Shown in pieces: positions 1,945 to 58,537 of a stretch of DNA of 64,000 bases; the stretch's first letter is position 1, and the number at the start of each line of letters is the position of its first letter. Made by a program: the position numbers and the translations under genes. The DNA is from Patescibacteria group bacterium (lineage in GTDB: Bacteria > Patescibacteriota > Minisyncoccia > Phycocordibacterales > SBAW01): contig JACOWS010000002.1 in the NCBI GenBank assembly GCA_016176685.1, forward strand, positions 30,608 through 94,607. The letters are read 5' to 3'. Under the pieces are notes generated by a model. That model made no database searches. It saw only the letters and a program-made list of their open reading frames with translations, and was not told where the DNA came from.

Positions 1945-1967
1945 CCTTCTGCACGATATGAATCCAG

Positions 1968-2030
1968 CACACCTGCTCAAGAGGGTAGGACTTGGCCTAG
2001 CGGCCCGGAGCGCCCTCTTGAGCAGGTGTG
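1968..2030 (+). repeat. Family 1 conserved-loop hairpin element, copy 1 (18-bp perfect stem plus 27-nt conserved loop TAGGACTTGGCCTAGCGGCCCGGAGCG)
   Basis: cacacctgctcaagaggg / ccctcttgagcaggtgtg is a perfect inverted repeat around the conserved core. It lies just 3' of the aminopeptidase stop. Confidence 0.85.
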
Positions 2031-2043
2031 TTGGCTAAATTAT

Positions 2044-17135: not shown

Positions 17136-17206
17136 CGGGCCGTAGTATACCGGTAGTACGCGTCCATGGGGTGGATGTAGACCGGGTTCAATTCCCGGCG
17201 GCCCGA
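17136..17206 (+). tRNA. tRNA-Pro (anticodon GGG)
   Basis: Cloverleaf fits: acceptor cgggccg/cggcccg with C1-G72 and A73 (Pro identity), D-stem gtat/gtac, anticodon stem cgtcc/ggatg, loop AUGGGGU, T-arm ccggg-TTCAATT-cccgg. CCA is not encoded. Confidence 0.65.
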
Positions 17207-17222
17207 AATAGTGCGCAGGAAG

Positions 17223-17297
17223 AAAACCCGCTGCAATTTTAAAGGGTAAGACTTGGCCTAGCGGCCCGGAGCGCCCTTTAAAATTGCAGCGGGTTTT
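17223..17297 (+). repeat. Family 1 conserved-loop hairpin element, copy 2
   Basis: 24-bp perfect stem aaaacccgctgcaattttaaaggg / its reverse complement around TAAGACTTGGCCTAGCGGCCCGGAGCGC. It lies between tRNA-Pro (+) and the exonuclease gene (-). Confidence 0.85.
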
Positions 17298-17301
17298 CGG
17301 A

Positions 17302-17901
17302 CTATACCCAGGGGATAGCAAACTGCTCAAATTCCGGCAGGAGTTTTTTGTCGGAGAGGAGGCGCGAGATAACCTCCGCGTGGCTTTTGGCGCCGGTCAA
17401 AGCGTTGTGGGGGGTCGGCTCTTCGGGGATGCCGCAGTACAGCAGTATAGCATCAAGATTGAGCGCGGAGTGTTTTTTTTCTGGGTCTAATGGGGGAGTG
17501 AGTCCCCTCTTTACCATGTGCATCCAGGCAAGCGAGTGGCTGTCTATCGTGCGATGGGCAAAGGGCCACTCTGTGTGCCCCGCACGGCCTGCGGCGTATT
17601 TTAAAAAATCGCGGTCAAACGACGGGTTCTGCCCGGCAAAGGTCCTGTCCCCCGCCTTGAGCGCCCAGGTAATAAATTGATGCACCAATTCCCCTTCGCT
17701 TTGTTTGTTAGGGTCCCCCGCCTCCTCGCGCGTAAAGCCGTTGACCGCGAGCGCCTCGTCTTCTATCTTGGCGCCGTCCCACGCCCGACACTCGGCATAA
17801 AAGGTGGGCCGCGCCGGATTGTCGAGGTCGACAGCTCCCACGCTTAAAATTGAGTGTTTGTGGGCCTCGGTGCCGGTTGCTTCTACATCAACTGCGAGCA
17901 T
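17302..17901 (-). CDS. DEDDh 3'-5' exonuclease (DnaQ/RNase T-like domain)
   Basis: Exo I 'AVDVEATG' and Exo III 'HNALTGAKSHAEV' motifs. Confidence 0.75.
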   Translation of the reverse strand: MLAVDVEATGTEAHKHSILSVGAVDLDNPARPTFYAECRAWDGAKIEDEALAVNGFTREEAGDPNKQSEGELVHQFITWALKAGDRTFAGQNPSFDRDFLKYAAGRAGHTEWPFAHRTIDSHSLAWMHMVKRGLTPPLDPEKKHSALNLDAILLYCGIPEEPTPHNALTGAKSHAEVISRLLSDKKLLPEFEQFAIPWV

Positions 17902-24319: not shown

Positions 24320-24943
24320 TTGCGTATGAACCCGCTTGAGCGCCTAACCAAAAACTTTGAACGGTTCCCCGGCATTGGCCCCCGGCAGGCAAGACGCTTT
24401 GTGCAGTTTTTACTTGTACAGCAGGGCGCCTATCGCACGGCGCTCGCCGACGACATCAAACGTCTCGGGGCAAACTCCTTCCAGTGCAAAAAATGTTTTC
24501 GGTGGTCGGTTAAAAACGGCAGCTCGCACGCCGTGTGTACTATATGTAGAGATGCTCACCGTGAGACCGGGCTTTTATGTGTGGTGGAAAAAGACGCCGA
24601 CCTCGACAACGTCGAGCGCAGCGGCTTTAAGGGTCTCTACTTTGTTTTGGGAGGGACCATACCTCTCGCCGCCGAAGAGCCAGAGGCCCATGTCCGCGCA
24701 CGAGAGTGTATAATGCGCATAGAGGAAGACGGCACTAAGGGTGTGTTAAAGGAGGTTATTTTGGGCCTCTCCGCCACCACCCTAGGCGACCACACCAGGG
24801 GCTTCCTACAAGAAAAGATACTGCCTATAGCGCAAGCGCTCAATTTTAAAATTACATCACTGGGTCGCGGGCTCTCAACCGGCTCGGAGCTGGAATATGC
24901 CGACCCGGACACCATCGCCAGCGCATTATCCTCTAGATACTAG
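24320..24943 (+). CDS. recR: Recombination protein RecR
   Basis: HhH 'FPGIGPRQARRF', C4 zinc finger and Toprim domain. Confidence 0.9.
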   Translation: MRMNPLERLTKNFERFPGIGPRQARRFVQFLLVQQGAYRTALADDIKRLGANSFQCKKCFRWSVKNGSSHAVCTICRDAHRETGLLCVVEKDADLDNVERSGFKGLYFVLGGTIPLAAEEPEAHVRARECIMRIEEDGTKGVLKEVILGLSATTLGDHTRGFLQEKILPIAQALNFKITSLGRGLSTGSELEYADPDTIASALSSRY

Positions 24944-25018
24944 AGAAACAAAAAAGTCCTTTGTACAGGAGTAGGGCTCCCGTTCATCTCTCCGGAACAA
25001 AGGACTTTTTTGTTTCTC
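24943..25018. repeat. Family 2 conserved-loop hairpin, copy A (22-bp perfect stem; loop contains GGAGTAGGGCTCCCGTTCATCTCTCC)
   Basis: gagaaacaaaaaagtcctttgt / acaaaggacttttttgtttctc around a 32-nt loop. It fills the gap between the recR stop (+) and the rplU stop (-). Confidence 0.8.
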
Positions 25019-25359
25019 TACGCAATCTTTGTTATCTTTACCTCAAAAAAGGGCTGGCGGTGGCCGCGTTTTTTAAAATAGTTGGACTTTGCTTTGTACT
25101 TGATAACCACCACCTTCTTGGCGCGGTCTATTTTTTGTATCTCTGCCGAAACCTTAGCCCCCGCAATGTAAGGCGTCCCCAAGGTGGTGTCTTTTCCATT
25201 GTCTACCACTAGCACCTTGTCAAAAGTTACCGCGTCGCCAATCGCGTAAGCTCCCTGCTCCGGGCTTGCAGGAGCAAGCTTCTCTATTTTGAGGGTGTCA
25301 CCCTGGGATACCATATACTGTTTCCCGCCGGTTTCTATGATGGCAAACTCCTTTTGCAT
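25018..25359 (-). CDS. rplU: 50S ribosomal protein L21
   Basis: 'MQKEFAIIETGGKQYMVSQGDTLKIEKL' L21 N-terminus. The longer track ORF is a read-through of the adjacent hairpin. Confidence 0.9.
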   Translation of the reverse strand: MQKEFAIIETGGKQYMVSQGDTLKIEKLAPASPEQGAYAIGDAVTFDKVLVVDNGKDTTLGTPYIAGAKVSAEIQKIDRAKKVVVIKYKAKSNYFKKRGHRQPFFEVKITKIA

Positions 25360-25405: not shown

Positions 25406-25489
25406 GATGAGAATCCGCAGCCATTTTGGATGGTAAGACTTGGGTCTTTAGCGGCCCGGAGCGCCATCCAAAATGGCTGCGGATTCTCA
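25406..25489 (+). repeat. Family 1 conserved-loop hairpin element, copy 3 (loop variant with a 3-nt insertion)
   Basis: 27-bp perfect stem atgagaatccgcagccattttggatgg / its reverse complement; loop TAAGACTTGGGTCTTTAGCGGCCCGGAGCGC. It lies just 3' of rmuC and 5' of rplU. Confidence 0.85.
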
Positions 25490-25496
25490 TATTGTA

Positions 25497-26600
25497 TTAC
25501 TCCTTCCCTTCCAACTCCGGTTTTTCAACCCCCTCAAGCTCAAAGCCGATCGCCTCGCCGGTGATTTTTAATACGTCTTTATCAATCTTCCCCAGCTCGC
25601 GGCTCCCGCCGTTGTAGTGGTTTATCGTGGTCGAGAGCGAGGCCCCAAGCCGTTTGTAGATATCTTCATACGCCTTCATATGGCGCGAAAGCGCCTCAAC
25701 ATTTTTAGCAATGTCCTTTGCCGCCTCTTCTATCTTAAAGGCCTTAAATCCGTACAGCACCGACTGCAAATAGGCGGCGAAGGTAGTGGGCGAGACAATT
25801 ATCACCTTTTTTTCGTTGTAGGCGTAGTCTATAAGGTTGCGCGTGTTTACCTTAACCGCCCCCACCTCATTTATCAAAAGGTCGTAGTAAATGGCCTCTG
25901 CCGGAATATACATAAAAGCAAACGGCAGTGTGCCGTCTTTGGGCCGCACGTACTTGGCGCTCTCGTCGATACGCGTCTTGAGGTCGTTTTTAAACTGCTT
26001 TTCTAGCTCCTCGCGCTGGGTCTGATCTATCGCATTCACCAGCCGGTTGTAGTTTTCTAAGCTAAACTTGGCATCAACCGGTATGACCCCCTCTTTGGTC
26101 ATAATTACCGCATCCACCGTCTCCCCGCCCGGAAATTCATACTGCATTTTGTAGGCGGTGGGCGGTAAAATGTTGCCCAAAATGAGCTCGAGCGACGCTT
26201 CGCCCAAGTTGCCGCGCTGTTTTTGGTGCGTGAGCACTTTTTCCAGATTTTGCAGCTGCTCGGCCAGGGTAAACACCTGCTTGTTGGACTCCTTCGTTTC
26301 GGCAACGCCCTTAGTTACCTCGAGCAGCTGCTCGGAGACCTGCTTGGTGATGTTGCTCATCAGCCGCTCGGCCTGCTCGGACTGCGTCTTCATGCTTTCA
26401 AACATTCGGTCGGAGCCCTCGCCAAGCTTGTTCTCCACCACCCGAGAAAGGTCTTGCAGCTGGTTTTGCAGGAGCATAAGCCCTTGGCTGTCGGCCAGAG
26501 CGTCCTGTGCGGGACCTGTGGAGCCGCGCCTCCACAACAGATACATAGTCGCTATGTTGCCAAGCACGAGGAACACCAGTAGCAGTATGAGCGGATCCAT
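25497..26600 (-). CDS. rmuC: DNA recombination protein RmuC
   Basis: N-terminal TM helix, long coiled-coil and RmuC C-terminal domain. Confidence 0.8.
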   Translation of the reverse strand: MDPLILLLVFLVLGNIATMYLLWRRGSTGPAQDALADSQGLMLLQNQLQDLSRVVENKLGEGSDRMFESMKTQSEQAERLMSNITKQVSEQLLEVTKGVAETKESNKQVFTLAEQLQNLEKVLTHQKQRGNLGEASLELILGNILPPTAYKMQYEFPGGETVDAVIMTKEGVIPVDAKFSLENYNRLVNAIDQTQREELEKQFKNDLKTRIDESAKYVRPKDGTLPFAFMYIPAEAIYYDLLINEVGAVKVNTRNLIDYAYNEKKVIIVSPTTFAAYLQSVLYGFKAFKIEEAAKDIAKNVEALSRHMKAYEDIYKRLGASLSTTINHYNGGSRELGKIDKDVLKITGEAIGFELEGVEKPELEGKE

Positions 26601-29132: not shown

Positions 29133-29789
29133 CTAATTGCCGGTTTCCTGGTTATCGGTAGAGCTTGCAGTAGTGGTTGGTGTTATGGTTGCTCCATTTG
29201 GCATCACCTCTTCTATAGGGAACTCTGTGGCGGAAGTGCCCTCTGTTGATGTGGGGAAGAAGATGCTTCTTACCGCTTCCGTGCCGCCAACTAATTGAGG
29301 GTAAAACCAATAGGCCAGACCTCCCAGACACAAGAGTATCACCAGCACAAAGATAAACAGCCAGGGAACCCGACTTTTGGTTAGTGGCGGGAATATGGCA
29401 GAGGTGCGCGCCGTGCTTGGAGAGACAGGCCCTGTGTCTATTTCCAACCGCGGCATAGTCGACAGTGGAGTTAAATGCACGGACGGTTGTTGCACGGTGA
29501 CAACCGGCTCTTGTGAGCCGCTCTGTGCCATGCGCGCGGCCTCGCCTATGCCGATTGAGACAGTCGGCCGTATTGTTGCAGGAGCTGGTGCCTTTGGCGC
29601 CATAGATGGTTTAGGAGCCATAGGGACCGGCGGTGCTGGAGGTTTTACTACGCCGTCGATAGCATCAAAGGCCTCTTTTGCATCTTGCTCGCTCCACCCG
29701 CCGGTGGCAAGCGCCTTTTTAATAGCATCACGCGAGGCGCCCGCCTTGAGTTGCCCGCGTATGTAAGAAAGTAGCTCTTCGTTAATCAT
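29133..29789 (-). CDS. Hypothetical membrane-anchored protein with Pro/Ala-rich linker
   Basis: 218 aa; N-terminal helical domain, PAPPVPMAPKPSMAPKAPAP linker, one TM helix. Confidence 0.5.
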   Translation of the reverse strand: MINEELLSYIRGQLKAGASRDAIKKALATGGWSEQDAKEAFDAIDGVVKPPAPPVPMAPKPSMAPKAPAPATIRPTVSIGIGEAARMAQSGSQEPVVTVQQPSVHLTPLSTMPRLEIDTGPVSPSTARTSAIFPPLTKSRVPWLFIFVLVILLCLGGLAYWFYPQLVGGTEAVRSIFFPTSTEGTSATEFPIEEVMPNGATITPTTTASSTDNQETGN

Positions 29790-29821
29790 ACTTATTGAAT
29801 TATACCACTATTGTACCACTC

Positions 29822-29894
29822 GCTGACAAGGCAAAAAAAGAGAGTAAGACTTGGCCTAGCGGCCCGGAGCGCTCTCTTTTTTTGCCTTGTCAGC
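29822..29894 (+). repeat. Family 1 conserved-loop hairpin element, copy 4; supplies the last codons and TAG stop of the FAD oxidase gene
   Basis: 22-bp perfect stem gctgacaaggcaaaaaaagaga / its reverse complement around TAAGACTTGGCCTAGCGGCCCGGAGCGC. The minus-strand reading of the arm plus core gives ...ADKAKKESAPGR*. Confidence 0.85.
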
Positions 29895-31631
29895 TGTGGT
29901 AACCGGCAAATCCAGGTGTGCAAACGCGTCGGAAAAGGTCGTCCCCACCTTTTTTCCTGGGTTAAAGATATTTTGCGGGTCAAATATTGACTTTACTTCG
30001 TGGAAGAGTGCAAACATCTCCTTTCCAAACATCTTTTCCACATAGGGCGTGCGGACTAGCCCGTCGTTATGCTCGCCGGTGATAGAGCCGTGGTAGGAAA
30101 GCACCAGGTCGTACACTTTGTGAGAAAGTTCGTCCAGTACCTTTCGCACACCGGGGTCCCGCGGGTCGACCAGAGGAATAATATGAAAGTTGCCGTCGCC
30201 CACATGGCCCGCAACCGTGTAGGTAAGCTTGTAGCGCGAGAGTATCTTTTCAAGTTTCGGCAAAAATTCAACAAGCGACGACGGGGGCACCACAAAGTCG
30301 TCTATAAAAGGGGCGGTGCGGCGGCCGACCACTTTTTTACGCAAGAGGTTAAAACTCTCGCGCCGCACCACCCAGTATTTGCGTGCGGCTCGCTTTGTCT
30401 TTGCAACGCGCACTTTCAGGTGTGTGCGGTTCTGCCTCACCTCCTGTGCAAGAGCTTGGGCTTTTCCTGTTGCCTCTTTTTGGGTCTCGGCACGGAACTC
30501 TACCAAAAGCACCAGCTTGGGCACCCCGCCGGAGAGCACCATCCACACTTCCGGCAAAAATGAGAGCCCCAGTTTAACCAGACCAACTATTCCGCCCAAG
30601 GCGAATTGGCCTTGGGCCGACATTTGTTGGGCAAACTCAAAGAAGTACTTGGTTGCCAGAGTAAACGTATGGTCGTCGTACGACTCAAAGCTGTCCGGCT
30701 CGTGCTTTAAAACCTCCGGCACCACCTCGCCAAGTTCGGACAGCGAGCGGAGGAAAATGACGGTCATCGCGGCATAGGGTTTGGGGCGCACCAGAGTGAA
30801 CCATATTTTTGTGATGATGCCGAGCGTACCCTGGGCTCCCACCATAAGGCGCGCCAAGTTAAGCGAGGGAGTACCGCCTGCCCGGCCTTCCGACGGATCG
30901 CCCACCTCCCACAGCGCATAGCCGGAGGAATTTTTTTCAACCTTTGGTTTGTGCTCCGCTATCACCTTGCGGTGCAGGGGGGTGCTTATCAGTGCGCGGA
31001 CACGGCGGTACACGCTACCTTCCCACGAGTCTTCGGCAAGTTTTTGCTGTAACTCCTCCCCTTCCAGTTTTTTAAAGTGATGTACCGCTCCGTCGGCGCA
31101 CACGACGTCGAGCTTTTCTACATACCGGGCAGTTTTGCCGTATTTTAAGTTCTTTTCCCCGCCGGAGTCGTTGGCAACCATGCCGCCTACGGCGTTGAGC
31201 TCGCGGCTGGCGGTATAGCTTGGGAGTTCCAGCCCCTTCTTCTTCGTCTCTTTGTCAAAGTCGCGGAAAAACATCCCCGGCTCTGCCACCGCATGGCCTG
31301 CCACTCCCGCGGCGCCGGGGATAGCATCAAGCTCCAGCAGGCGGTGTAGGTGTTTAGTGACGTCCAGGACTATAGAGTCGCCCAAGGGGCCTCCACCCAT
31401 GTCTGTACCCGCCGCGCGCGGGGTAATGGAGAGGTGCGTCTTGGGGACCTTTTTCTTTTCGTCTACAAAGCGCACTGCGGCGCAGATATCCTCCGCGTCT
31501 TTTGGATACACTACAACCTGCGGCCGCACGGCAAACAAGCTCGCGTCGCGACTGTAATGCGCCAAGGTCTCTGGCGAGTCATCCACCTCGCCGCGCAGTA
31601 TTTTACGCAGTTCTTCCCCCAAACTGCTCAT
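29856..31631 (-). CDS. FAD-binding oxidoreductase (FAD-linked oxidase, GlcD/D-lactate dehydrogenase-like)
   Basis: PCMH-type FAD-binding domain motifs and a C-terminal oxidase domain; 591 aa. Confidence 0.8.
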   Translation of the reverse strand: MSSLGEELRKILRGEVDDSPETLAHYSRDASLFAVRPQVVVYPKDAEDICAAVRFVDEKKKVPKTHLSITPRAAGTDMGGGPLGDSIVLDVTKHLHRLLELDAIPGAAGVAGHAVAEPGMFFRDFDKETKKKGLELPSYTASRELNAVGGMVANDSGGEKNLKYGKTARYVEKLDVVCADGAVHHFKKLEGEELQQKLAEDSWEGSVYRRVRALISTPLHRKVIAEHKPKVEKNSSGYALWEVGDPSEGRAGGTPSLNLARLMVGAQGTLGIITKIWFTLVRPKPYAAMTVIFLRSLSELGEVVPEVLKHEPDSFESYDDHTFTLATKYFFEFAQQMSAQGQFALGGIVGLVKLGLSFLPEVWMVLSGGVPKLVLLVEFRAETQKEATGKAQALAQEVRQNRTHLKVRVAKTKRAARKYWVVRRESFNLLRKKVVGRRTAPFIDDFVVPPSSLVEFLPKLEKILSRYKLTYTVAGHVGDGNFHIIPLVDPRDPGVRKVLDELSHKVYDLVLSYHGSITGEHNDGLVRTPYVEKMFGKEMFALFHEVKSIFDPQNIFNPGKKVGTTFSDAFAHLDLPVTTADKAKKESAPGR

Positions 31632-32258: not shown

Positions 32259-32921
32259 CTACCCCTTTTTGTCGAGAACAAACCGCCACGGCTTGTTTAC
32301 ATACTCACCCGCGGAGTCAATGCCGATGCGCGGGGTGCATCGCACTTGACCACGCCCTACCTCTACTCCTCTGTCCTCAACCCACAGGCCGGTCTTTTTG
32401 CCGAGCGGTTTGTTGTTTAGCTTTTTGTCTACCTGCAAAAACTTGGTGAGTTTTGCCGGACCGTCAAGGCGCACGCCAACAGGGCGAAAAAAGAGGGCGC
32501 TCCGGGCCGCTAGGCCAAGTCCTACCCTCTTTTTTCGCCCTGTTGGCGGCAGCTCACCGTGTGACAAGATTCGACTTTGCCATTGCGGTTCAAGGCCGCG
32601 TATCAGAACAGCCGCAGGATATCTTTCTTTCCCGCACACCAGGTTAAGCATCCAGTGCATGCCGTAGGTAAAGTACACGTACACCACTCCGGGGCGGCCA
32701 AACATCGGCGTGTTGCGAGCGGTTTGCCCGCGGTGGGCATGGCTGGCTTTGTCTCTTGGGCCGTCGTACGCTTCGGTCTCAACAATCATAAGTGCTACTT
32801 CACTGCCCCGTACCCTGCGCACTAAAAATTTTCCCACAAGTTCCCGCGCCACGGTAAGTGTTGGCCGGTCAAAAAACGCCGCTTGTAGAACTTTGCGCAT
32901 AGGTTGCATGATACGCAACAT
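32259..32921 (-). CDS. mpg: DNA-3-methyladenine glycosylase (Mpg/AAG family) carrying an in-frame hairpin-element insertion
   Basis: 'FLVRRVRGSEVALMIVETEAYDGPRDKASHAHRGQTARNTPMFGRPGVVYVYFTYGMHWMLNLV...IRGLEP...DGPAKL'. The 220-aa length equals a typical roughly 196-aa Mpg plus a 24-aa insert. Confidence 0.85.
   Translation of the reverse strand: MLRIMQPMRKVLQAAFFDRPTLTVARELVGKFLVRRVRGSEVALMIVETEAYDGPRDKASHAHRGQTARNTPMFGRPGVVYVYFTYGMHWMLNLVCGKERYPAAVLIRGLEPQWQSRILSHGELPPTGRKKRVGLGLAARSALFFRPVGVRLDGPAKLTKFLQVDKKLNNKPLGKKTGLWVEDRGVEVGRGQVRCTPRIGIDSAGEYVNKPWRFVLDKKG
32475..32545 (-). repeat. Family 1 conserved-loop hairpin element, copy 5, embedded in-frame in mpg (translated as PPTGRKKRVGLGLAARSALFFRPVG)
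   Basis: 22-bp perfect arms ccaacagggcgaaaaaagaggg / reverse complement around GTAGGACTTGGCCTAGCGGCCCGGAGCGC on the gene strand. The reading frame is preserved. Confidence 0.85.
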
Positions 32922-39272: not shown

Positions 39273-40933
39273 CTACAAAAGTATCTCGACTAGTCGGCTT
39301 AATACAAAGTCGCGTTCCAGTGCGGAAAGGAACCACCCGGCTTGCGGACCGTGCGTTTTGCCGAGGAAAGCCAGGTAGATTGCTTTAAACAGCTCCGCCG
39401 GGGCTATGCCCTGCCCTTCCTTTATTTCATGCAGTTTTTTGTGCAAGTCATCACCGCTTGGCATCTGCGGCGACACTTCTATATATCGAAGTAGCTCGCC
39501 GAGAGCTTTTTTCTGCGCGTCGCTTAAACTGTTAGCTGCGTCCGGGAGCGTTTTCTGCAGTTCATAGACAAACCTCTCCGGCGCATATTGTGCGAGCCAT
39601 TTTTTTGCATACGAGGCGCGCTCCTTGAGCTCTGTTTTATCCTCTGCGGTGAGCGCACCGCCTTTTATTTTTTCCACCTCCACTTCCACCTTAAGGTGCG
39701 GCATCTGCACGATGAAGGCCACTTGCGAAAACCGCGGGAGAAAGACCGGTGGCGGAATCCGCCGGAGAAATGGTCTGGCCTCGCCTTGCCCGCCAGGAGA
39801 TTGCGGGCGAGCGAGGAGACCCGAGGACCTTTCTCCGGCGGATTCCGCCGTAGGTTCAAACAAATATGAAAACAACCGCGCGTAGTCGTCTTTGACGCCG
39901 GCCCAATAGCTCAAGGCGAGTTTGTCGTACTGGTCGTAGAGCACCGGTATGGTATCGCCCTCGGGGTCGAAATTTATTTGCTGGTTGATGTCGCGGCCCA
40001 GCAGTGCCAAACGGAAAATCTTTGTGGGTACCAGGTCTGAAATTTCTTTAGCACTGCTCCCCCTCCCTTTGCTTGACGACATCTTTTTGCCGCCCGCGAG
40101 CAAAAACTCGTAGGGGATGTCAAACGGCGGCTCGTAGTTGAAGACTTCTTTGGAAATATGGTTGGCCACGTCGCGCGAGCCGCCGCGCGTCGAGTGGTCT
40201 TTGCCCGCGCCCTCTACCAAAACTCCGCCCACCTTCCACTTTGCGGCCCACTCAACCTTCCACGGCAACTTGGCTTTACCGCCAAACGGGGAAACTCTGC
40301 CCGCAAATCCGCATCCTTTTGTATATTCAACCTTATCTTCTCTGCAGAGGACGGCCACTGTTTTGCCATCGAAGTCGCTTGCTTCTGTGGTTGCTATCTT
40401 TCCGCACCCCGGGCACACTACGGAGAGCGGGAGCCACTCCCCTTCTTTTTGCGAGCCGGAAACTTCTTTATATATAGTGCGGATTTTTTCGGCATTCTTG
40501 AGCGCCCCGGTAATAGCCCCGTCCATGCGGCCAGAAAGATATAGGTCGCTTGCCCACGAGTATTCTGGGGTAAACCCCGCATGCGCTATGGCTTTCTTAA
40601 AGTCGTCGGCAAAGTACTCGGCAAAGTTTAGGGCGCTGGGCTCTGGTGATGGCACGTTTTTAAGCGGCATTCCCAAATAGTGCTCAAATTGTTCGCGCGG
40701 GAGGTAGGCGGGGATGTCATCCATCGGGTCAAAGTCGTTCATCTCAAAGCGAAATACGTTCGGGACTTTTGCTCCGCGAGTATCTTGGCCACCGCGCCGT
40801 GTATTGCCACCCCGCGCATAGAACCTATGTGTACGCGGCCGGAGACCGTCTTTTCGTCGCGTACGACAATGGTACCCTTCCGGCCCTTGTAGCGCTCGAC
40901 TATCTCCCCCGCTATCCGCTCTGCCCAAAACAT
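39273..40933 (-). CDS. lysK: Class I lysyl-tRNA synthetase (LysK type) with an apparent single-base frameshift near 40765-40768
   Basis: Frame A (40933 to about 40766) encodes 'MFWAERIAGEIV...SGRVHIGSMRGVAIHGAVAKILAEQK' (HIGH region). Frame B continues 'VPNVFRFEMNDFDPMDD...CPGCGK...KMSSSKG' and matches archaeal-type LysRS throughout. The junction lies in an A4 run on the coding strand (TTTT on plus) that would need to be A5. Confidence 0.8.
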
Positions 40934-48934: not shown

Positions 48935-49012
48935 CAGCCAGCGGAGCAAAAAAAGAGGGCACTCCGGGCCGCTAGGCCAAGTCTAACCCTCTTTTTTTGC
49001 TCCGCTGGCTTG
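48935..49012 (-). repeat. Family 1 conserved-loop hairpin element, copy 6 (core variant TTAGACTTGGCCTAGCGGCCCGGAGTGC); supplies the holB-like C-terminus and TAG stop
   Basis: 25-bp arms cagccagcggagcaaaaaaagaggg / reverse complement. On the gene strand the arm plus core reads ...ASGAKKEG-TAG. Confidence 0.85.
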
Positions 49013-49699
49013 CAGTTGTGGCAAGGTAGCGGCCAAGTGCTCCAGGAGCATTTTGTAGGAGGGGGCGCGGTCGTTTGCGTAGCCGCGGATTTTTGCAATG
49101 TCTTCAAGCCCTTCTCGCACCCTACTATTCCCTTTTGCCAGGTGCGGATACATTTCCACCTCGAGCGCGTCTAAAAATGCGCGCACCGACTCGCGTAGGC
49201 CTTCGTCGTCCCCGACCGAACGACCGGAGTCGTCCGGTCGGGCGGGTTTGAGCATTTTGGCTATTTCCGCACTGCGCGCCGTTTGCGAGCTAGCAAGAAA
49301 TTTCCTGGCAAGCGCATGCTCAACAATGATGGATTTACGAAGTCCATCATTGGGGTATGGAGTCATTCTCGAGCGCAGGGTCGGTATGACCGTGCCATGT
49401 GGAGTTAACAAAACAAAGATGGTCCCCTGCTGCGGCTCTTCAAACAATTTTAAAAGCGCCTGCTGGGCTTCTATGGTCATGGTGGAAACGCCCACTACAA
49501 AAAGCGCGCGGCCCGTGGCCGACCTAAGCCCTGCCGCTTGCCGCAAGGCGCGCGCCTCGCCTATACCAAAAGTCTCTTCACTAACCACCCTAACGTCCGG
49601 GTCACCCTGTTTTGTAAAAGTAAAACGTGTACGCGCATCCTCTACGAGCCCTACAAGGTTTGAAAGAGGCCCTTCAAAAAGGTAGGCGTGGTGCTGCAT
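48983..49699 (-). CDS. holB: DNA polymerase III delta-prime subunit-like (HolB-like clamp-loader subunit)
   Basis: 'ALLKLFEEPQQGTIFVLLTPHGTVIPTLRSR' clamp-loader box; start chosen at MQHHAYLFEGP. Confidence 0.65.
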   Translation of the reverse strand: MQHHAYLFEGPLSNLVGLVEDARTRFTFTKQGDPDVRVVSEETFGIGEARALRQAAGLRSATGRALFVVGVSTMTIEAQQALLKLFEEPQQGTIFVLLTPHGTVIPTLRSRMTPYPNDGLRKSIIVEHALARKFLASSQTARSAEIAKMLKPARPDDSGRSVGDDEGLRESVRAFLDALEVEMYPHLAKGNSRVREGLEDIAKIRGYANDRAPSYKMLLEHLAATLPQLQASGAKKEG

Positions 49700-49710
49700 G
49701 TACGCAGTAT

Positions 49711-49795
49711 AGCGAAGCAAAAACCCTTTGCGAAGGAGTAGGGTTCCCGTTCATCTCTCCTTTGCAAAGGGTTTTTGAGCAGTTTACCGCTTCGC
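49711..49795. repeat. Family 2 conserved-loop hairpin, copy B (loop GGAGTAGGGTTCCCGTTCATCTCTCC; inner 13-bp stem plus outer 7-bp stem)
   Basis: aaaaaccctttgc / gcaaagggttttt plus gcgaagc / gcttcgc. It lies between the mreB-2 stop (-) and the holB-like start (-). Confidence 0.8.
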
Positions 49796-57965: not shown

Positions 57966-58250
57966 TCCGCGGTAGCTCAATGGTAGAGCAGCTCCCTGTC
58001 AGCAGGCAGCCTCCCACAGGAATGTGGGTTGCAAACGAGGTGAATTCGGGGAAATCCTAAGCTTTGTCGAAGGACAATCCCGAGCCAAGCTCCAGATTTT
58101 GGAGAAGGTGTAGAGACTATCCCGCAAGGGAGTACTCTCAAAAAGAGGAAGCCCCTCGCATCCAGAACGGATGATGATATAGTCCACGCCCGCAGTAATG
58201 TGGGGAAACGTGTAAGGAGTTGGTTGTAGGTTCGAGTCCTACCCGCGGAG
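57966..58250 (+). tRNA. tRNA-Asn (GUU) interrupted by a 213-nt group I intron in the anticodon loop (mature length 72 nt)
   Basis: Exons UCCGCGGUAGCUCAAUGGUAGAGCAGCUCCCUGU / UAAGGAGUUGGUUGUAGGUUCGAGUCCUACCCGCGGAG fold as tRNA-Asn with loop CUGUUAA and G73. The 5' splice site is after U, the intron ends with G, and a GCAGG internal guide-like segment follows the splice site. Confidence 0.7.
58000..58212 (+). ncRNA. Group I self-splicing intron (subgroup IC3-like) within tRNA-Asn
   Basis: Contains blocks nearly identical to the Azoarcus/cyanobacterial tRNA introns: AATTCGGGGAAATCCTAAGC, GAGCCAAGC and GAAGGTGTAGAGACTA (J8/7-P7). No ORF. Confidence 0.7.
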
Positions 58251-58482: not shown

Positions 58483-58501
58483 TCCTACCCGCGGAGCCCA
58501 G
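58483..58501 (+). repeat. 19-bp exact direct repeat of the tRNA-Asn 3' end (TCCTACCCGCGGAGCCCAG; first copy 58237-58255); att-like
   Basis: Read directly from the sequence. This is the classical signature of site-specific integration at a tRNA 3' end. Confidence 0.6.
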
Positions 58502-58537
58502 ATAACCCTTTGCGACGGCAAAGGGTTATCTGGGCTC
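58494..58537 (+). repeat. 20-bp perfect hairpin with GACG loop (gagcccagataaccctttgc-gacg-gcaaagggttatctgggctc); left arm overlaps the att-like repeat
   Basis: Read directly from the sequence. Confidence 0.6.

Follow-up and report, generated by a model that had tools for sequence, protein, structure and literature searches.

A palindromic repeat of Patescibacteria with a conserved hairpin loop, probably mobile, that extends into gene ends and coding sequences

The hairpins described here, which combine a conserved loop with variable but complementary arms, appear to be copies of a short, non-autonomous palindromic repeat that is widespread in the Patescibacteria (CPR) and that behaves as a mobile or self-propagating DNA element, a reading to which we attach a probability of roughly 0.7. 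The best reading of this repeat, termed family A, is that of a new palindromic mobile element similar to REPs and RPEs. The case for mobile or selfish behaviour rests on several lines of evidence: (i) in-frame copies within genes (30 of 117 analysed); (ii) insertions found in the RarA gene of some lineages; (iii) a mixture of hairpin families at one site in a DNA glycosylase gene; and (iv) patchy presence of the hairpins among related genomes. Six copies, approximately one per 10 kb, are found in the 64-kb window (the whole stretch of DNA that was analysed), and two of them change the ends of genes, in that an open reading frame (ORF) continues into one arm of the hairpin and terminates at a stop codon in its loop.

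Hairpin copies at the 3' ends of two genes

Copy 4 of family A (29822-29894, forward strand) is formed by the arms GCTGACAAGGCAAAAAAAGAGAG (29822-29844) and CTCTCTTTTTTTGCCTTGTCAGC (29872-29894), which are 100% complementary around a 27-nt loop, TAAGACTTGGCCTAGCGGCCCGGAGCG (29845-29871). It overlaps a minus-strand gene (29856-31631) for an FAD-binding oxidoreductase of 591 residues, which contains the Pfam domains FAD_binding_4 and FAD-oxidase_C (PF01565 and PF02913) and whose conserved part ends ...LDLP. As an earlier, sequence-only reading of this DNA had claimed, the ORF traverses the right arm of copy 4 and terminates at the TAG within the loop, which is the reverse complement of the CTA at 29856-29858 within GGCCTAGCGGCC. 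The predicted element-encoded tail (29856-29894, minus strand) comprises that TAG and the 12 codons preceding it, with which the protein ends ...ADKAKKESAPGR*.

Across approximately 120 orthologues of the oxidase, the sequence is conserved up to ...LDLP and is then followed by a variable tail of roughly 1 to 30 residues, and the same 3' site is variously occupied among close relatives. One relative (L117, oxidase 86% identical) harbours the same hairpin with arm changes that are compensated on both sides, with the loop inverted, and with the ORF stopping at a different loop codon (GAG AGT TAG). Two others (L118 and L119, 85% identical) possess another hairpin family at that site, the copy in L118 (4700-4790) belonging to a second family, termed family B, where the window has family A; in a fourth (L120, 78% identical) the hairpin is absent and the next gene begins 7 nt away. 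The arm, as read from the oxidase gene, starts with GAC AAG GCA (DKA) and resembles the tail found in L118, whose hairpin family differs; given that likeness, part of the arm could be native sequence. Directly after copy 4 on the minus strand (29790-29821), a promoter-like box, TGGTATAAT, lies 9 nt 5' of the ATG of an ORF at 29133-29789, and its position suggests a hairpin-then-promoter layout in which the transcript of that ORF would be nearly leaderless.

Copy 6 (48936-49010, minus strand; arms 48936-48959 and 48987-49010) carries the loop variants TTAGAC and GGAGTG, and lies at the end of a DNA polymerase III delta-prime-like (holB-like) gene (48983-49720, minus strand; PF13177), the orthologues of which end ...LPQL(K). 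As the earlier reading correctly described, its ORF ends ...ASGAKKEG*; it traverses the arm at 48987-49010 and stops at the TAG contained in the GGTTAGAC variant of the loop. The predicted element-encoded tail (48983-49010, minus strand) would thus add 8 residues (ASGAKKEG) from the arm and supply a stop codon, the TAG of the TTAG variant, from the loop. The C-termini listed for 70 of 120 holB orthologues read ...KMLLEHLAxxLPxL(K), with a few short extensions. The closest relatives found, L121 and L122 (74% and 71% identity), are both without the hairpin, and the TGA stop codon of the L122 gene, in GCTGAAATACG, aligns with a TGA just past the distal arm in the window.

Because each ORF ends in a loop, because the C-termini of orthologues differ, and because the corresponding sites in L120, L121 and L122 are empty, the tails of both proteins are considered to be element-derived. 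The proposal that both genes had been modified at their 3' ends by insertion of the element is therefore supported by the comparison with about 120 orthologues of each: those free of the hairpin share neither the C-terminal residues nor the stop position, the holB proteins ending earlier and the oxidases diverging after their conserved part. Such overlap with gene ends recurs in other copies, as a gene stop codon is found inside 17 of the 117 listed copies (genes of at least 100 residues), and in nine of these it lies in the loop. At each of the two genes a copy sits on or beside the original stop codon, and the ORF now continues across the proximal arm, whose richness in A accounts for the predicted ...AKKE...; translation would stop in the loop, either at the TAG of GGCCGC-TAG-GCC in the reverse reading or at the TAG or TAA of the T(A/T)(A/G)GAC end in the forward reading. 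Two of the six reading frames of the loop contain a stop codon, and a copy is read through in the other four. Predicted element-derived tails of this kind are already part of deposited CPR proteins with NCBI/nr names, among them P0001, the 591-residue FAD oxidase, and P0121, the holB-like protein.

Sequence architecture and taxonomic distribution

Family A was sampled by searching genomes, one for each prokaryotic species, for an exact 22-nt core; this yielded at least 116 stretches, and 117 usable copies from those listed were analysed. Every named taxon among the matches listed belongs to the Patescibacteria, the taxa being Saccharibacteria (gut and oral lineages too), Paceibacteria, Kaiser-, Adler- and Nomurabacteria, and Peribacteria; a search of viral contigs for the core returned 0 matches. 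In the window, the 22-mer GACTTGGCCTAGCGGCCCGGAG occurs 5 times against 0 expected, and the six copies fold with z-scores of -8 to -11 relative to shuffled sequence. The unit is about 73 to 83 nt in length, with the 27-nt loop given above and, in the window copies, arms of 23 to 28 bp.

The remaining copies in the window occupy various positions relative to genes. Copy 1 (1964-2034, forward strand) is located approximately 20 nt past the stop codon of an ORF at 709-1944, and copy 2 (17222-17298, forward strand) between a tRNA-Pro gene (17136-17206) and the stop codon of a convergent ORF (17302-17901). Copy 3 (25407-25490, forward strand), the loop of which is of a subtype termed A2 (TAAGACTTGGGTCTTTAGCGGCCCGGAGCG), lies 6 nt past the stop codon of a minus-strand ORF (25497-26600), and copy 5 (32474-32548, minus strand) is found in frame in a 3-methyladenine DNA glycosylase gene (32259-32921, minus strand), where it encodes PPTGRKKRVGLGLAARSALFFRPVG. 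The orientation of the window copies changes from plus to minus near 31 kb, and a GC-skew profile showed no replication-strand switch there.

In all 117 listed copies the core forms the loop of a hairpin, and the arms vary from copy to copy; this invariance of the loop is overstated by a sample that was chosen by an exact 22-mer. In samples not chosen in that manner, the loops comprised five canonical sequences and one A2 (in the window), and one canonical sequence, one A2 and one of a further subtype, A3 (at loci selected for family B). An ungapped alignment of 83 columns contained standard pairs in 78.1% of cells, as compared with 46.6% after shuffling (0 of 500 shuffles scored as high), and gave a covariation score of 0.744, as compared with 0.20 for shuffled alignments and at most 0.31 for slid controls; that the arms remain paired and covary to this extent indicates that the hairpin is maintained. 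Pairing holds for approximately 23 bp, is weaker at pairs 24 to 28, and is lost by about pair 29. At arm positions 6 to 10, the left arm is rich in A and the right arm in T.

The conserved block lies at the centre, and the entropy of the arms is 1.5 to 2 bits per position; outside the loop region, conservation above 90% is confined to the loop-proximal G columns 24 and 28 of alignment A6. A reading of the copy listings nonetheless gives the outer arms a loose consensus, GCCGGCAA..CG, that holds from one genome to another and is found in family B as well as in family A, and a reading of the alignments indicates that the inner stems tend to be genome-specific. The notion that the arms are inverted copies of the local target was rejected as a general rule, given that copies 4, 5 and 6 have similar arms at unrelated genes and that the outer-arm consensus is found across genomes. 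Purine-purine oppositions (G.A and A.G) were noted at fixed stem positions (pair 2 and pairs 24-25 of alignment A6; for instance in the Saccharibacteria copies L058, L081 and L101). Examples are CGAG, which is present in each arm, and GA..GA, which lies at the base of the stem; they resemble tandem sheared G.A motifs. A survey of the literature for the core sequence, or for palindromic, REP or MITE elements of CPR bacteria, found nothing relevant.

Genomic context

The gene contexts of the 117 listed copies, which were derived from simple longest-ORF calls, place 44 copies between genes on the same strand, 20 between convergent genes, 10 between divergent genes, 5 at a contig edge and 38 within a called ORF of any size, of which 30 are in frame in an ORF of at least 150 residues. 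Among these 30 intragenic copies each of the four stop-free frames is represented, and neither of the two that contain a stop codon; the predicted peptides are RLGLAARS or KTWPSGPE when read forward and LRAARPSL or RSGPLGQVL when read in reverse, and the insertion would lengthen the encoded protein by about 25 residues. The host genes include those for IF-2, a ValRS-type synthetase, ArgRS, MiaA, RarA, the DNA glycosylase, a cysteine desulfurase, FtsJ- and MTS-type methyltransferases, and an O-antigen-ligase-like protein (Wzy_C). In RarA, the element is absent from the window and from L118, and insertions with the hairpin are present in L053 (22 alignment columns) and L017 (approximately 36 columns). 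Insertions of 20 to 45 residues are likewise present in deposited essential enzymes of CPR bacteria, and both tails and insertions are to be annotated as repeat-derived, rather than as lineage-specific domains.

Intergenic copies are separated from the upstream stop codon by a median gap of 7.5 nt, a position that would be expected if the hairpins were bidirectional intrinsic terminators or mRNA 3'-end stabilisers of the host, with a loop that binds a CPR protein; they would in that case evolve in place, and their overlap with gene ends would be incidental crowding in a compact genome. Such a role would also agree with the A and T tracts that flank the inner stem, with the scarcity of copies between divergent genes, where 10 of the 74 intergenic ones lie, with the promoter-like box after copy 4, and with the presence in the window of other palindromes (I10, I14, I15 and I17) that have loops of 4 to 5 nt, in some cases with A/T-rich outer ends, and that are putative terminators. 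A terminator would be harmful, however, at the positions of the in-frame copies (30 of 117) in genes such as IF-2, ValRS, ArgRS and RarA, and copies are present or absent among relatives that are 74 to 86% identical. Furthermore, the A and T tracts lie inside the long stem, and a simple consensus terminator scan calls none of the hairpins (the scan allows loops of 3 to 8 nt, for which the family A loop is too large). In view of these observations and of the strand evidence given below, the reading of the hairpins as host-functional terminators or stabilisers is judged to be improbable. For a mobile element, intergenic copies next to stop codons, with their A and T tracts, would probably double as bidirectional terminator-like structures.

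An examination of 116 loci, with approximately 0.8 Mb of flanking DNA, revealed no recurrent transposase-like gene or other recurrent neighbour; clustering of neighbouring ORFs returned only syntenic housekeeping genes, and the accompanying Pfam scan covered 10 neighbouring or host proteins. No distinct target-site duplication is evident; flank repeats of 2 to 3 nt number 29, against about 12 expected, a weak GA signal that is confounded by the GA..GA motif at the base of the stem. Direct evidence of recent transposition was not found either, as no two full-length copies that occupy separate sites are nearly identical among the copies examined. In one contig (L028 1779-1945), two copies of family A occur in tandem, with identical left arms and with an unrelated right arm in the second copy, an arrangement that points to duplication in place or to rearrangement of one copy.

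Strand asymmetry of folding

Mismatches within the stems are distributed unequally between the two strands. When scored on the strand that reads TAAGAC...GGAGCG, G.T oppositions outnumber A.C by 98 to 17, G.A outnumber C.T by 62 to 6, and G.G outnumber C.C by 18 to 1; when the arms alone are folded, the forward strand folds better in 99 copies and the reverse strand in 13. A comparable bias (40 versus 4) was found for family B, on its own preferred strand. The orientation of the copies relative to genes is unbiased (17 same and 27 opposite among same-strand intergenic copies; 15 and 15 among intragenic copies), and the mismatch ratios point in the same direction whether the TAAGAC...GGAGCG strand is sense (25:2 and 8:3) or antisense (32:5 and 27:1), some of these counts being small. 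Because the asymmetry holds in both orientations, selection for structure in mRNA only cannot explain it. We infer that one of the two DNA strands is recognised or copied while single-stranded, as occurs for REP/RAYT systems, IS200/IS605 elements, attC sites and single-strand origins (sso), with transcription of both strands being another possible explanation of the bias. Both the independence of orientation from gene direction and the finding that the better-folding strand is as often antisense as sense argue further against the hairpins being host-functional terminators.

These same data bear on whether the hairpin instead acts at the level of the transcript as a structured RNA, be it a small RNA, a riboregulator or an element excised like an intron, with its intragenic copies being removed or bypassed. 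The strong covariation, the tolerance of G.U-type pairs, the tandem G.A motifs of the stems and a compensatory change in the mini-hairpin of the loop (see below) would all be in keeping with such an RNA. Yet for half of the copies it is the complement, which folds poorly, that would be present in the mRNA, and all 30 intragenic copies are in frame and avoid the frames with stop codons, which removal from the mRNA would not need. Nor did any of 41 same-strand flanking gene pairs resemble a split gene, and no conserved promoter-like flank was seen beside family A copies. The hairpin matches no Rfam family at gathering thresholds, and a permissive search returned only generic microRNA-hairpin matches, at no more than 30 bits against thresholds of 45 to 200. 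A function as a structured RNA is thus considered very unlikely, and propagation as DNA is the preferred reading.

Turnover of the loop at a shared insertion site

The glycosylase gene that contains copy 5 provides a second series of occupied and empty sites. A homologue in L120 is without a block of 39 residues that includes copy 5, and in an AlphaFold model of the protein the core is predicted with pLDDT values above 90 and the insertion (residues ~105-145) as low-confidence coil; the model is consistent with a surface loop in which additional residues are tolerated. Among 120 glycosylase homologues, the long insertion is absent (at most 20 residues, mostly a 5-residue linker) in 86, and longer insertions of up to 46 residues are found in 34. 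Many of these long insertions are identifiable as family A, its A2 subtype, family B or a fourth family, with A and B being present in both orientations, a pattern to be explained either by repeated colonisation of a single tolerated position or by a strong preference for this target.

Several smaller observations were made at this site. The fourth type of insertion encodes KVLGSPVSRRPLRGGLAGQTF (P0247, P0251, P0256 and P0324) and presumably represents another element family. Next to copy 5 (32560-32600, codons for PQWQSRILSHGE), approximately 12 extra residues are encoded in the window, in L117 and in L172 that are absent from the similar protein P0243, and this block may represent another small insertion, or what is left of one. 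A palindromic GCCGGC target at the glycosylase site was considered and found to be unsupported, as the empty site in L120 reads GGC GCA GGG.

The glycosylase of L172 is 82% identical to that of the window, and approximately 190 nt of flanking sequence and arms are 96 to 98% identical to those of the window and L117; the counterpart of copy 5 (L172 2380-2590) nevertheless has its loop in the opposite orientation and in the form of the 30-nt subtype A2. Together with the inverted loop at the oxidase site of L117, this case indicates that inversion or replacement of the loop far outpaces the accumulation of substitutions in the flanks. Variant loops retain the mini-hairpin by compensatory change (GGCC-TAGC-GGCC to GGGC-TAGC-GCCC). 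The A2 subtype recurs in at least one other sampled lineage (L132 and L152, two near-identical contigs), A2-type peptides are found in several glycosylase homologues, and A3 loops occur in two lineages (L105; L163 and L167).

Exchange and inversion of the loop between unchanged arms and flanks would also be produced if the mobile unit consisted of the loop and inner stem only, copied into the apex of hairpins that already existed, with the outer arms being local sequence. Genome-specific inner stems, outer arms that differ between copies, and the occurrence of families A and B at the same oxidase 3' site in relatives might all be explained in this way. When compared with empty sites, however, the insertions in RarA and in the glycosylase include both arms as well as the loop; the loose consensus of the outer arms across genomes and between the two families implies that the arms travel with the element; and the arms of A and B copies at shared sites are unrelated. 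Mobility confined to the loop and inner stem is accordingly the least probable of the explanations weighed here, and the whole hairpin is the more plausible mobile unit.

A mechanism for the spread of the whole hairpin may be outlined as follows: (i) one strand would fold, when single-stranded, into the hairpin; (ii) the apical loop, with its mini-hairpin GGCC-TAGC-GGCC, would be recognised in trans by a putative factor, perhaps an enzyme of the HUH/RAYT type or a process tied to replication; and (iii) the palindromic arms would be kept paired by gene conversion or by template switching from one arm to the other, which would also flip or replace the loop and homogenise loops among copies. A bolder version of this scheme, which is conceivable but doubtful, envisages a new selfish or host-recruited element that exists as a folded single DNA strand, with a loop cassette that would be read strand-specifically by a putative CPR-wide enzyme, perhaps HUH-like, or would serve as an sso-like priming signal. 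The loop would then be copied, inverted and swapped between hairpins faster than it acquires point mutations, and the surface loops of essential proteins would have been colonised across the superphylum.

Relationship to known repeat systems

RPEs are not known outside Rickettsia and are conserved along their whole length. Each is about 150 bp and encodes a conserved peptide; they are palindromic, often lie in frame in unrelated housekeeping genes, contribute peptide segments that are compatible with folding, and have no known transposase (PMC10969869). Of the systems compared, RPEs are closest to family A in effect, as both consist of in-frame palindromic insertions in unrelated genes, in the reduced genomes of host-dependent bacteria, for which no transposase is known. 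Family A differs in being approximately 75 nt in length, in having an invariant loop only, with arms that covary freely, in its use of both orientations to give four peptides, and in its CPR-wide distribution.

REPs are hairpin repeats at the 3' ends of genes, in which one strand is relevant, the stems keep their pairing, and terminator or stabiliser activities arise as side effects. They are extragenic, consist of an imperfect palindrome of 20 to 40 nt with a conserved GTAG at the 5' stem base and a short variable loop, and flank genes for RAYT proteins (Y1 HUH enzymes). As strand-specific hairpins at gene 3' ends, they are closest to family A in logic; in contrast to REPs, family A is conserved in its loop, has no GTAG at the stem base and places a quarter of its copies within genes, and no RAYT gene was seen in the loci examined.

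Classical MITEs are recognised by terminal inverted repeats of conserved sequence, by target-site duplications and by the existence of a cognate IS. SPRITE, Correia/NEMIS, ERIC and BOX MITEs are multi-copy and non-autonomous, give rise to stable transcript hairpins, and can resemble Rho-independent terminators and form in-frame fusions with host ORFs (PMC10969869). Family A is likewise a short, multi-copy, non-coding repeat, to which SPRITE-like MITEs come closest in terminator resemblance, but its termini are variable and its centre conserved, and no IS was found in the loci examined. The earlier comparison of the two gene ends with C-terminal remodelling by REPs or MITEs therefore holds as an analogy of effect, but does not extend to membership of either class, as family A lacks the GTAG motif and exclusively extragenic location that define REPs and the conserved termini that define classical MITEs.

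Integron attC sites conserve the base of the stem and are found in cassette arrays beside intI, and sso are single sites on rolling-circle plasmids. In ssoA origins, the loop contains the motif CS-6, TAGCGT (PMC4598088). Family A shares with attC and sso the maintenance of structure over sequence and the use of one strand, and its mini-hairpin loop reads TAGCGG or TAGCGC against the TAGCGT of CS-6; this 5-of-6 match offers a lead, although it could be due to chance. To our knowledge, the combination of an invariant loop with freely covarying arms, folding that favours one strand whichever way the genes are transcribed, and turnover of the loop that outpaces change in the flanks has not been described for REPs, MITEs or RPEs. 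Family A indicates that even streamlined CPR genomes (at most 1 Mb) harbour a prolific repeat that alters the ends of genes, the loops of proteins and probably also the ends of transcripts, and its 27-nt loop provides a bait for a recognising factor in bacteria that are hard to study genetically.

Family B and other palindromes

Family B, which behaves like family A, is defined by a conserved loop, (GGAG)AGATGAACGGGARCCCTA(CTCC), between variable paired arms, and was seen in 49 metagenome stretches; 15 of 45 distinct copies are in frame within long ORFs, including those of proteins that resemble NAD-dependent ligases by sequence motif. Two copies are present in the window, one (24941-25020, minus strand) with 31-nt arms and an 18-nt loop, AGATGAACGGGAGCCCTA, and the other (49718-49777, minus strand) with 21-nt arms and the loop AGATGAACGGGAACCCTA; this second copy overlaps the start of the holB-like ORF (49720).

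A third type of hairpin (L008 3208-3274; L047 5864-5930) has a 39-nt loop that contains two mini-hairpins, AAGACATTGGAAATGTCTGCCGACTCG...CGAGTCGG, and begins with AAGAC, as does that of family A. Elsewhere in the window, an imperfect palindrome at 39751-39849, with 44-nt arms that are 80% complementary around an 11-nt spacer, resembles neither family A nor family B in sequence, and a perfect 20-bp palindrome with a 4-nt loop at 58494-58537 has AACCCTTTGC in one arm in common with the family B copy at 49718-49777. Finally, a group I catalytic intron is reported by Rfam at 57986-58205 (56.7 bits, E 1e-11), a region in which ARAGORN called no tRNA.
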